A DNA stretch of 64,000 nucleotides from Escherichia coli (GCF_050920415.1 NZ_CP169309.1), one strand, 5' to 3'; positions 60,331 to 63,468 are shown, counted from the stretch's first letter. Numbers and translations: made by a program. The notes: generated by a model from the letters alone, not told the origin.

Positions 60331-60714
60331 TCATCTCGCCGTCAGTTGTTTTGATTTCCGGTAGCCTGCTGCGTAAAGAGCTACATTTGGAAGACATACA
60401 CCAGTTTCTGGTTGCTTATGTCCAAACTCATTCGCGTACACAATGGCCGCTCTCTCCAGATTGCGTCTGTATTCTTTCTGTTGCCAGATCACGTCCTGTG
60501 CCATGAACTTAATTGGCTTAGCGTCTTCTATGCGCTCAGGCGTTTCGTGAGTACCTTTAGCCTGAATCTGCGCTCTGCTTAGAGTAGGGCGGTGTAATAC
60601 TTCTGAACTTATTGCTTCTTCGCGGGCCAGTACGCCGTTAGCTAATGCCTTTGCCTTTAAACGCTCACGACGACGAGAACGTGAATTGCCTTTGAACTGA
60701 GTTCTGCGTGTCAT
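60331..60714 (-). CDS. N: Antitermination protein N-like (non-lambda type)
   Basis: 127 aa with N-terminal arginine-rich motif (RRTQFKGNSRSRRRERLKAKA); first gene downstream of pL/OL. Confidence 0.6.
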   Translation of the reverse strand: MTRRTQFKGNSRSRRRERLKAKALANGVLAREEAISSEVLHRPTLSRAQIQAKGTHETPERIEDAKPIKFMAQDVIWQQKEYRRNLERAAIVYANEFGHKQPETGVCLPNVALYAAGYRKSKQLTAR

Positions 60715-60962
60715 ATAGACCTCCTGATGAACTTTGGTGGTGTGGTAGGTGGGAGACCCATTTCGACCTGTTTCGGCCTACTTCAATTCGGCAATAGTCC
60801 CGCAGGCCTCGCCGCTTTACGTGCGACATATTCCCGTCCATGAACCCTTCACCACACCCCAAAGTTCACTTTGGTTATTGCGCTTTGTCAGCGCCGTAGA
60901 TTCATATTCGAATCGTTGTATATTCACCGCCCTGGTGAGTAGTGCGTCCTGCTGATGTGTTT

Positions 60963-61025
60963 AGTATCACCGCCAGTGGTATTTATGTCAACACCGCCAG
61001 AGATAATTTATCACCGCAGATGGTT
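60963..61025 (-). promoter_or_regulatory. pL promoter with operators OL1, OL2 and OL3 (lambda type)
   Basis: TATCACCGCCAGTGGTA (60965-60981), CAACACCGCCAGAGATA (60989-61005) and TATCACCGCAGATGGTT (61009-61025) match recalled lambda OL sites; -10 GATACT and -35 TTGACA on the minus strand. Confidence 0.85.
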
Positions 61026-61181
61026 ATCTGTATGTTTTTTATATAGATTTATTTTTTTGCAGGGGTGTGTGGCTTGGGAGGTGATCGAGAGATCTGAATT
61101 GCGATGTTTAGTGAGTTGTATCTATTAATTTTCAAATAAATACAATTGGTTATGTGTTATTGGGTGAAGGGGATCGTGAGG

Positions 61182-61208
61182 CAAAGAAAACCCGGCGCTG
61201 AGGCCGGG
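61182..61208 (-). terminator. Rho-independent terminator ending the cI operon
   Basis: cccggc gctgag gccggg hairpin followed on the minus strand by TTTTCTTT, 8 nt after the stop of the 123-aa ORF. Confidence 0.7.
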
Positions 61209-61215
61209 TTGTGTG

Positions 61216-61587
61216 TTACTTAAGAACGAGTCCGTTTAAGGCATCAAGGATTTTGGAAACATAACTTCCAAAAATGTAGGCGCAAAATGCGAACACGAAA
61301 CTGACAACGACCGCAGATGCCTTGATGGTGATTTTTGCTGAGCTAATGCTTGTCTCAATACCTGACAGACGAGAATCTACAGATTTTATATCTGACTTTA
61401 CTTCAGCGAGATCGCGCTTGATGTATTCAACATCAGACTCTAGCTTTGCAACTCTAGCCTCAAGCATGTTACCTCCGCCGTTTCCTCCACCATGCCGTGA
61501 GTATGCATCATCAGTGGAATAGTGTCCAATTGGGCGAGATATGTTTTGATTTGGACGAAGCTGAGCAACCTTGTTATCTAAACTCAT
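61216..61587 (-). CDS. Unknown protein (123 aa; possibly 83 aa from an internal Met): Gly-rich N-terminus, coiled-coil, single C-terminal TM helix; second gene of the rexAB-slot cassette
   Basis: ORF overlaps upstream ORF by 14 nt; alternative start MLEARVAKLE preceded by GGAGGT; TM segment ASAVVVSFVFAFCAYIFGSYV. Confidence 0.55.
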   Translation of the reverse strand: MSLDNKVAQLRPNQNISRPIGHYSTDDAYSRHGGGNGGGNMLEARVAKLESDVEYIKRDLAEVKSDIKSVDSRLSGIETSISSAKITIKASAVVVSFVFAFCAYIFGSYVSKILDALNGLVLK

Positions 61588-62011
61588 CGCGAACTGATCC
61601 TGTTATCTTCACGTCAAAAAACGAACTTTTTACATCAATTACTTCGCCTTTATCAGGATTAACCAGTGATGCTCTAACTTCGAATATCCCAGGCTTGATA
61701 ATTTTCACCCTTGGGAAGTTAATTCTCATAGAAGTTGATACGATGGTTTCTCCATCGTTGGCTTCTGCTACCGTAAAAAACTTATGGTTGGAGTACAGTT
61801 TTGTGTCAATTGGTATCGGTATTTCTTGAGCATTGAAAACCTCAATGCCTATGGAATATTTTTTTGTAGCCTTAAGGCCGATAAAAAAAGCGCCAAATGA
61901 TAGATCCACTTCATGGGAGTCTTTATCCATTTCATAGATAAGAACTGGAGTTACTGGGTTGCCTTCATCCATCGCAATCGGAATGATATAAGAAATACGT
62001 TCTTTAATCAT
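61574..62011 (-). CDS. Unknown soluble protein (145 aa); first gene of the rexAB-slot cassette, 8 nt downstream of cI
   Basis: ORF on the cI strand; no recognised motif. Confidence 0.55.
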   Translation of the reverse strand: MIKERISYIIPIAMDEGNPVTPVLIYEMDKDSHEVDLSFGAFFIGLKATKKYSIGIEVFNAQEIPIPIDTKLYSNHKFFTVAEANDGETIVSTSMRINFPRVKIIKPGIFEVRASLVNPDKGEVIDVKSSFFDVKITGSVRDEFR

Positions 62012-62018
62012 TTACGTG

Positions 62019-62732
62019 TTATCCAAACGTCTCTTCAGGCCACTGGCTGGCGATAACTTTCCCCACAACGGAACAACTCTCATTGCATGGGATCATTGGG
62101 TACTGTGGGTTTAGTGGTTGTAAAAACACCTGACCGCTATCCCTGATCAGTTTCTTGAAGGTAAACTCATCACCCCCAAGTCTGGCTATGCAGAAATCAC
62201 CTGGCTCAACAGCCTGCTCAGGGTCAACCAGAATTAACATCCCGTCAGGAAAACTAGGTTTGGATCCTGTTGGCGCGGTCATGGAATTACCTTCAACCTC
62301 AAGCCAGAATGCAGAATCACTGGCTTTTTTGGTTGTGCTTACCCATCTCTCCGCATCACCTTTGGTAAAGGTTCTAAGCTCAGGCGAGAACATCCCGGCC
62401 TGAACATGAGAAAAAACAGGGTACTCATACTCACTTCTAAGTGACGGCTGCATACTAACCGCTTCATACATCTCGTAGATTTCTCTGGCGATTGAAGGGC
62501 TAAATTCTTCAACGCTAACGTTGAGAATTTTTGCAAGCAATGCGGCGTTATAAGCATTTAATGCATTGATGCCATTAAATAAAGCACCAACGCCTGACTG
62601 TCCCATCCCCATCTTGTCTGCGACAGATTCCTGGGATAAGCCAAGTTCATTTTTCTTTTTTTCATAAATAGCTTTAAGGCGACGTGCGTCCTCAAGCTGC
62701 TCTTGTGTTAATGGTTTCTTTTTTGCGCTCAT
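62019..62732 (-). CDS. cI: Phage repressor cI (lambda type; HTH plus S24 LexA-like autopeptidase domain)
   Basis: 237-aa product matches recalled lambda cI almost residue for residue ([21 protein letters not shown] ... AG cleavage site ... GNSM ... KKL). Confidence 0.95.
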
Positions 62733-62741
62733 ACGTTAAAT

Positions 62742-62807
62742 CTATCACCGCAAGGGATAAATATCTAACACCGTGCGTGTTGACTGTTTTACCTCTAGCG
62801 GTGATAA
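62742..62807. promoter_or_regulatory. OR3-OR2-OR1 operators with divergent pRM and pR promoters
   Basis: TATCACCGCAAGGGATA (62742-62758), TAACACCGTGCGTGTTG (62765-62781), TACCTCTAGCGGTGATA (62789-62805); pR -35 TTGACT and -10 GATAAT. Confidence 0.85.
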
Positions 62808-62832
62808 TGGTTGCATGTACTAAGGAGGTTGT

Positions 62833-63033
62833 ATGGAACAACGCATAACCCTGAAAGATTATGCAATGCGCTTTGGGCAAACCAAGACAGCTAAAGATCT
62901 CGGTGTATATCAAAGCGCGATCAACAAGGCCATTCATTCAGGCCGAAATATTTTTTTAACTATAAACGCTGATGGAAGCGTTTATGCGGAAGAGGTAAAG
63001 CCCTTCCCAAGTAACAAAAAAACAACTGCATAA
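62833..63033 (+). CDS. cro: Cro repressor (lambda type)
   Basis: 66-aa product [35 protein letters not shown]... matches recalled lambda Cro with about 2 substitutions. Confidence 0.95.
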
Positions 63034-63171
63034 GTAACACCGCTATTTTCACAATGGACATTCGTCCTACGTCGCTGACAAAGCGAGTCCCAAGATATCT
63101 GACCAACTAAGGCCATATGCGTTTCCACGCATACCTTTCAACTAACTATTCACTATTGGAAATCTTAAGAA

Positions 63172-63468
63172 ATGGAACGAACAAGTTACAGCAAACTATC
63201 ACAGCGTGACGTTGATCGCGCAGAAACAGATTTACTCATCAACCTATCAACGCTTACCCAGCGCGGTCTGGCAAAGATGATTGGCTGTCATGAATCGAAG
63301 ATAAGCAGAACGGACTGGCGGTTTATTGCTTCGGTCTTGTGTGCTTTCGGAATGGCATCAGACATCAGTCCGATTAGCAGGGCTTTTAAGTATGCGCTTG
63401 ATGAAATCACCAATAAAAAACGCCCGGCGGCAACCGAGCGTTCTGATCAAATACAAATGGAATTTTAA
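63172..63468 (+). CDS. cII: cII-like transcriptional activator (mosaic: divergent N-terminal/HTH part, lambda-like C-terminal tail)
   Basis: 98 aa; C-terminal TNKKRPAATERSDQIQMEF matches the recalled lambda cII C-terminus; the first ~80 residues differ from lambda. Confidence 0.6.
   Translation: MERTSYSKLSQRDVDRAETDLLINLSTLTQRGLAKMIGCHESKISRTDWRFIASVLCAFGMASDISPISRAFKYALDEITNKKRPAATERSDQIQMEF

Follow-up and report, generated by a model that had tools for sequence, protein, structure and literature searches.

We analysed the immunity region of a lambdoid prophage at positions 60331-63468 of a 64,000-nucleotide (nt) stretch of Escherichia coli DNA (GCF_050920415.1, NZ_CP169309.1; hereafter the window). 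This interval is very probably the lysis-lysogeny switch of a natural prophage that belongs to the lambda immunity (imm-lambda) group and is a mosaic of the HK97/mEp234/HK106 type. The arrangement has already been described, in those three phages, and is an ordinary imm-lambda switch placed in an HK97-like regulatory backbone. The only residual novelty is a cassette of two genes, here called g145 and g123, in the slot that rexA and rexB occupy in lambda.

The interval was compared by blastn with lambda positions 34500-39500, and the junctions were read from the alignments at the ends of the blastn matches; a sliding-window profile of global alignments was uninformative in the non-homologous stretches, where cheap gaps inflate the matches. 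Three blocks of likeness were found. The longest, window 62023-63047, matches lambda 37231-38255 over 1025 nt without gaps at 97.6% identity; a second, 60924-61210, extends from pL/OL to the Timm hairpin and matches lambda 35550-35826 at 89%; and the third comprises the last 58 nt of cII (63407-63464; lambda 38592-38649, 93%). Beyond them, the interval and this part of lambda had no blastn match. Such blocks lie far beyond chance expectation, and the alignments support a mosaic with sharp boundaries.

The left junction, at ~60924, falls at the edge of lambda nutL, between pL/OL and N, so that nutL goes with N on the non-lambda side. The right junction, at ~63047, is 14 nt past the cro stop codon and just ahead of nutR boxA/boxB; since likeness to lambda fades before boxB, nutR is non-lambda too. 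Inside cII, an HK97/mEp234-like body switches at ~63407-63413 to sequence that is identical to lambda for 40 nt, and around the cII stop (~63446-63470) there is a second switch, or drift, to a third sequence type. Two more junctions were found. At the end of cI (62019-62022) the lambda match begins only at 62023, with TAA and GGA here as against TGA and GGC in lambda, and at the Timm/g123 stop (61213/61216) the likeness ends 3 nt past the Timm hairpin. Together these two delimit the cargo cassette that replaces rexAB. The original prediction, made from the sequence alone, had proposed breakpoints between OL and N and inside cII. Both were located, but the right-hand break does not lie solely in cII, as there is another at ~63047; the sharp identity borders, with no uniform divergence, uphold its mosaic reading. 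It had not mentioned the junctions at the cI stop and at Timm/g123, nor the replacement of rexA/rexB, the non-lambda state of nutL and nutR, or the private substitution in Cro.

The core of the interval has the sequence features of the lambda immunity group: a CI of lambda specificity, a lambda-type Cro and six 17-base-pair operators with lambda spacing, five of them identical to those of lambda. The sequences of OL1 (60965-60981), OL2 (60989-61005) and OL3 (61009-61025) are the same in lambda, HK97, mEp234 and E. coli NCCP13717, and their positions agree with the mEp234 immunity region record (EF120460). From that record we transferred the positions of OR3 (62743-62759) and OR2 (62766-62782), both identical to lambda, and of OR1 (62790-62806), which reads TACCTCTAGCGGTGATA and differs from lambda by a G-to-A change at 62797. 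pL (60963-60991, minus strand; TTGACA-17-GATACT) scored 10/12 in a consensus scan, is identical to lambda pL and matches the pL annotation of mEp234. pR (62780-62808, plus strand; TTGACT-17-GATAAT) also scored 10/12 and has an A-to-G change in its spacer, at 62786; pRM (62739-62767, minus strand) is at its lambda position. The segment from OL3 to Timm (61026-61213, minus strand) ends in the Timm hairpin at 61189-61210, which is terminator-like by scan and annotated as Timm in EF120460. Its untranslated part (61026-61188) lies inside the 89% lambda match and is 97-98% identical to HK97/mEp234, while the adjoining cargo varies freely.

N, cI, cro and cII are all intact open reading frames, with Pfam hits above the curated cut-offs for HTH_3 and Peptidase_S24 (both in cI), Cro, N_peptide and Phage_CII. 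The repressor gene cI (62019-62732, minus strand) encodes 237 amino acids of the lambda immunity type. Its product is 100% identical to the CI of HK97, mEp234 and NCCP13717 and 99% identical to that of lambda; two substitutions, T3A and K71N (Met taken as residue 1), make up the whole difference from lambda. Against lambda the gene has 15 synonymous and 2 non-synonymous differences, which fits purifying selection. cro (62833-63033, plus strand) encodes 66 amino acids (Pfam Cro E=8.5e-35, 119 bits against a cut-off of 32.7); the protein is 97% identical to lambda Cro, with A36S and K39N as the two differences.

The genes on either side of this core are of another origin. N (60331-60714, minus strand; 127 amino acids; PHROG 271, N-like) is an HK97/mEp234-type antiterminator allele, 99% identical to N of HK97 and mEp234 and only 31% identical, where aligned, to lambda N. 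It has the arginine-rich N-terminal motif and belongs to Pfam N_peptide (E=9.8e-16, 58.5 bits against a cut-off of 27.9). The nut sites accompany it. nutL boxB (60880-60894, minus strand) is the hairpin GCGCTGACAAAGCGC, identical to the boxB annotated in mEp234 EF120460; at the place aligned with it, lambda has GCCCTGAAGAAGGGC. nutR (63041-63086, plus strand) has boxA CGCTATTTT at 63041-63049 and a non-lambda boxB, TCGCTGACAAAGCGA, at 63072-63086. The two boxB hairpins share the loop GACAA, and both are identical to the mEp234 sites, whereas boxB of lambda nutL/nutR reads GCCCTGAA[G/A]AAGGGC. The nutR boxA itself varies: CGCTATTTT in the window, CGCTCTTTT in mEp234 and CGCTCTTAC in lambda. The A at 63045, found in 18 of 57 natural loci, is a polymorphism inside boxA.

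cII (63172-63468, plus strand; 98 amino acids) combines an HK97-type body with a lambda-type C-terminal tail and matches Pfam Phage_CII (PF05269; E=2.7e-33, 114.5 bits against a cut-off of 21.3). Overall it is 42% identical to lambda cII, with the identity concentrated in the last 18-19 residues, TNKKRPAATERS-QIQMEF. The original prediction had thus been right on these genes: it had called cI, cro and the operators near-lambda with one difference each in OR1 and the pR spacer (OL1-3, OR2 and OR3 are indeed identical, and CI and Cro differ by two residues each), N arginine-rich but unlike lambda N, and only the last ~18 residues of cII lambda-like.

pRE (63162-63194, minus strand), with its CII site at 63181-63194, was transferred from EF120460 3889-3921 with an offset of 59273, and its function would follow by analogy. 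The CII site reads TTGC-TGTAAC-TTGT, the second repeat being imperfect with respect to TTGC-N6-TTGC, and the same site is annotated in mEp234. The lambda-like patch at the 3′ end of cII (63407-63464, read on the minus strand; 93% to lambda 38592-38649) includes the 40-nt perfect block and, at 63417-63444 (minus strand), a hairpin followed by a T-run that a consensus scan scored as terminator-like. We take the patch to lie at the position of the lambda oop antisense RNA terminator (oop ~38675-38599) and CII tail. An Rfam scan of 54000-64000 at E<=1 was without match, so that nut, oop and any other RNA of this stretch fall in no curated family.

Taken from the alignments, the exchanged unit is a repressor-operator-cro block in a backbone whose N and both nut sites match each other. 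The module borders keep specificity pairs intact (repressor with operators, N with both nut sites), and paired specificities kept together are the pattern produced by functional-cassette exchange through recombination between lambdoid phages. On the model of lambda biology, CI dimers would bind cooperatively to OL1/OL2 and OR1/OR2, shut off pL and pR and activate pRM, the transcript of which would run past cI through the two cargo genes to Timm. Upon induction Cro would occupy OR3 and N would antiterminate at its own nut sites, and CII would activate pRE via TTGC-N6-TTGT. Four points weigh on the other side. Immunity, inducibility and N/nut specificity are all read from sequence identity to studied phages; the window stops at 64000, so that the prophage is seen only to there; the boxA annotated for nutL in mEp234, CGCACTACT, fits the boxA consensus poorly; and two rare changes, one in the pR spacer and one at the end of the Cro recognition helix, could affect the lytic arm.

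The last of these points bears on an alternative that takes the changes in OR1 and pR for laboratory-type mutations of operator or promoter (virulence, operator-constitutive); the prophage would then be decaying, with its switch altered or broken. The OR1 change does fall at position 8, in the non-consensus half, and moves off the half-site consensus G. We judged the question by allele frequency in natural loci. A scan of IMG/VR for OR2-pR-OR1, with the spacer and OR1 positions left open, gave 58 loci: 43 had spacer A with OR1 A (HK97 type), 13 had A with G (lambda), two had G with A as in the window, and none had G with G. OR1 A is therefore present in 45 of 58 loci, as well as in the viable temperate phages HK97, mEp234 and HK106. 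An exact 34-mer search of 5426 complete E. coli genomes found OR1 A in 177 and OR1 G in 174. According to a tabulation in PMC2194778 of the data of Sarai and Takeda (1989), the change (G10-C32 to A-T) costs 0.4 kcal/mol of repressor binding, among the smallest values in the operator, and OR1 A would be expected to lower intrinsic CI binding by only some two-fold. The allele is common in nature and is not a laboratory operator mutation.

The other two changes are rare. The pR-spacer G at 62786 is found in 2 of 58 loci, one of them contig L025, the twin of the window, and Cro A36S (62938 T) in 1 of 58, again L025. A search with window 62770-62960 found an imm-lambda pR-cro stretch in 616 of the 5426 complete E. 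coli genomes (11%); the 191-mer used spans both 62786 and 62938, and none of the 616 came closer to it than two mismatches. The spacer change, however, lies between OR2 and OR1 and outside both operators and both hexamers, with the 17-nt spacing kept, A36S is conservative, and the open reading frames of the switch are intact. The effect of both changes is probably small. The second difference from lambda Cro, K39N, is a common natural allele (N39 in 25 of 58 loci). The decaying-switch alternative is, on this evidence, improbable. The original prediction had left the two differences between alleles of natural imm-lambda prophages and known operator mutations; the first description fits OR1 A, whereas the spacer G is rare among wild loci. 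In addition, ~360 of the 616 genomes have further variants in a 61-mer covering pR and the cro leader that are neither of the HK97 nor of the lambda type.

Comparison with known phages places the interval close to mEp234 and HK106 (EF120460, EF120461; Degnan et al. 2007, Mol Microbiol 64:232), which share N, nutL, pL/OL1-3, Timm, cI, OR1-3 including OR1 A, cro, nutR and the cII body at 98.3% over 73% of the interval. From the 'immunity region' records of wild imm-lambda phages (EF120455-EF120461), operators, promoters, nut, Timm and CII site transfer one to one. mEp234 differs in its cargo between cI and Timm, which is hicA/hicB and one further open reading frame as against g145/g123, and in its cII tail, which is of a third type (KKKSPAATEDFKQIDMQF) where that of the window is lambda-like; relative to both phages the window has in addition the G at 62786 and Cro A36S. 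HK97 (AF069529/NC_002167) matches at 97.7% over 73% of the interval, with N at 99%, identical cI, the same operators including OR1 A, the same Cro except A36S, and the same cII body; it differs by gp48/gp49 in the rex position, by the N-terminus and tail of cII (86% protein identity) and by its replication module. Lambda (NC_001416 35550-38655) shares cI and Cro (2 amino acid differences each), five of six operators, pL/pR/pRM, Timm and the oop-terminator/cII tail patch. It has its own N, nutL/nutR boxB, rexA-rexB, cII body and O gene, and carries OR1 G, Cro K39 and CI T3/K71.

The entire interval, g145/g123 included, is found in E. coli NCCP 13717 (NZ_CP115984, 99.6%) and in enteropathogenic E. 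coli E2348/69 (NC_011601, 98.6%), where the annotations are LexA family protein, two hypothetical proteins, N peptide, CII and Cro. NCCP 13717 differs by pR spacer A, by Cro A36, by a lambda-type cII tail running on into lambda-like O/P genes, and by other genes left of N. IMG/VR contig L025 is 100% identical to window 55054-63940 (8.9 kb).

These comparisons also bear on whether the lambda-like block could have come from laboratory lambda, as contamination, a cI/pR cloning vector or an engineered imm hybrid. Near-identity with lambda across 1 kb would suit such an origin, and lambda lysogens or lambda-derived parts are frequent in sequenced laboratory strains (J53 is among the exact lambda-type matches). 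But the block has 25 differences from lambda in 1025 nt, and at 23 of them the window has an allele that is common among natural loci (the majority allele at 21), the exceptions being 62786 G and 62938 T. The flanks are non-lambda (HK97-type N and cII, the cargo cassette and the sieB allele), the block runs on unbroken into prophage early genes and chromosomal genes, and the same interval is present in L025 and in two clinical E. coli genomes. A laboratory source is extremely improbable. An evenly diverged relative of lambda without mosaicism, which could appeal to the protein-level homology of N and cII to their lambda counterparts in the same Pfam families, is refuted by the alignments: DNA identity drops from 97.6% to undetectable within ~15 nt past cro and returns as a 40-nt perfect match in cII, the stop codon of cI marks precisely where likeness begins, and the same flanks accompany the module at 97-100% in some phages while others have different flanks.

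The reading as a natural imm-lambda mosaic in itself adds little, as HK97 and the 2007 survey of wild imm-lambda phages already show other N/cII and non-rexAB cargo. In that survey most isolates reportedly had other N/CII alleles beside a near-invariant CI/Cro/operator core. We observed several N and cII states among the 41-58 imm-lambda loci compared here. Laboratory lambda is a less typical member of its own immunity group, since OR1 A is at least as common as G, the window alleles are mostly the common ones in cI-cro, and rexAB is rare in its slot. A passage of PMC8585504, citing Degnan et al. 2007, describes the cI-N region of lambdoid phages as a hotspot of mosaic diversity and places lambda rexAB there.

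The cassette that takes the place of rexA/rexB, both absent, consists of two overlapping minus-strand genes fitted exactly between the cI stop and Timm (61216-62011). The first, g145 (61574-62011), starts 7 nt past the cI stop and encodes a soluble protein of 145 amino acids (PHROG 5893, unknown function); the second, g123 (61216-61587), encodes 123 amino acids (PHROG 6136, unknown function), and its stop abuts the Timm hairpin. An AlphaFold2 model of g145 is all-beta, with eight strands (predicted local distance difference test 86, predicted template modelling score 0.80), and the predicted structure matches generic Ig-like beta-sandwiches. No family was found for g145 in Pfam, NCBIfam or PADLOC, and its family is tiny, with 19 cluster representatives at E<=0.001 among 1.84 billion. 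The g123 product combines a Gly-rich N-terminus with a coiled coil and a single membrane helix at the C-terminal end (residues 88-110, hydropathy peak 2.1). NCBI names its relatives 'hemolysin XhlA'; the match of g123 to XhlA (PF10779) reached 19.3 bits against a cut-off of 34.7 (E=0.0013), and we rejected that assignment. NCBIfam likewise had no family for g123, N or cII. In PADLOC, neither g145 nor g123 nor the SieB-like protein encoded left of N had a convincing match; the hits were weak for g123 (CorA-like E=0.0039, LmuB E=0.034) and nil for g145.

The location is that of the rex genes, directly downstream of cI in the pRM operon and ending at Timm. As with lambda RexA/RexB (comparison facts from PMC11077077), the two genes fill the slot after cI, end at Timm, lie in the same transcription unit and encode a soluble and a membrane protein. 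In contrast, RexB has four helices and g123 one, and RexA is a 31-kDa protein whereas g145 is a 145-residue beta-sandwich. The pair are not RexA/RexB homologues: their sequences resemble neither RexA nor RexB, they have no DNA similarity to lambda rexAB, and the single helix of g123 does not correspond to the four-helix RexB.

In Salmonella, Edwardsiella and Dryocola, various S24 repressors have a homologue of g145 (65-75% identity) downstream. The homologue follows the repressor directly in Salmonella and Edwardsiella, and stands one gene further on in Dryocola; an overlap with the next gene (103-132 amino acids) is seen in Edwardsiella, Dryocola and one Salmonella locus. A 47%-identical g145/g123 pair is present in an Enterobacter-type prophage, after a short helix-turn-helix repressor. 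The g145/g123 overlap is 8-14 nt in the four loci checked (the window, L065, L066 and L072). Altogether, the pair follows at least four different repressors across Escherichia, Salmonella, Edwardsiella, Dryocola and Enterobacter prophages. In Enterobacter and Yersinia, relatives of g123 are found after a repressor and a ~141-residue protein; an hhalign comparison of the g145 profile with these upstream partners (Enterobacter L069, Yersinia L071) was not significant. A census of the cargo in 41 loci containing both OL3 and the cI end revealed at least 14 types; the HK97 type leads with 12 loci, the window type comes second with 10 (the window counted), and rexAB has only two (lambda counted).

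As judged by its position and make-up, the likeliest role of the cassette would be a prophage-expressed function against other phages. More specifically, though we propose this only tentatively, g145 and g123 may form an undescribed exclusion or abortive-infection module, co-transcribed with the repressor in lysogens, in which g145 would sense the phage and tail-anchored g123 would be the effector. As a conserved, uncharacterised cassette it can be tested cheaply for anti-phage activity.

The interval lies within a prophage integrated in an Escherichia chromosome, adjoining dsdA/csc genes. From 36000 to ~59650, the window carries oxc, evgSA, emrKY, dsdA and csc genes and matches E. coli chromosomes at 95-98%. 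Over the flank at 36000-54000 (oxc, yfdV, evgSA, emrKY, dsdA, csc), most complete E. coli genomes reach only 95-96% identity, against 98.4% for strain E200086, and the host may represent a divergent Escherichia lineage. Right after dsdA and the csc sucrose genes, a torI-like excisionase (54457-54657) opens the left arm of the prophage, followed by ea22-like genes, RecT (57712-58623), kil, cIII and a sieB-like gene. No integrase was found at the left end within the window, and ARAGORN, run on 50000-64000, detected no tRNA; int and the attachment-site tRNA therefore presumably lie beyond the window, at the opposite end of the prophage.

The gene next to N (59770-60309, plus strand) is of the SieB superinfection exclusion family (Pfam SieB E=1.5e-20, PHROG 1301) and abuts N as lambda sieB does; this allele is without DNA similarity to lambda sieB. 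A terminator-like hairpin at 60316-60343 follows it and overlaps the 3′ end of N. At its other end the window stops inside a replication initiator gene that starts at 63633. This gene contains a tandem array at 63922-63985, 2.9 copies of a 24-nt unit (GGTGGGGCAGGAGCTGCCCAGG), and the repeats are probably origin iterons. L025 is 45 nt shorter at 63922-63985, which may reflect either copy-number variation or assembly collapse.

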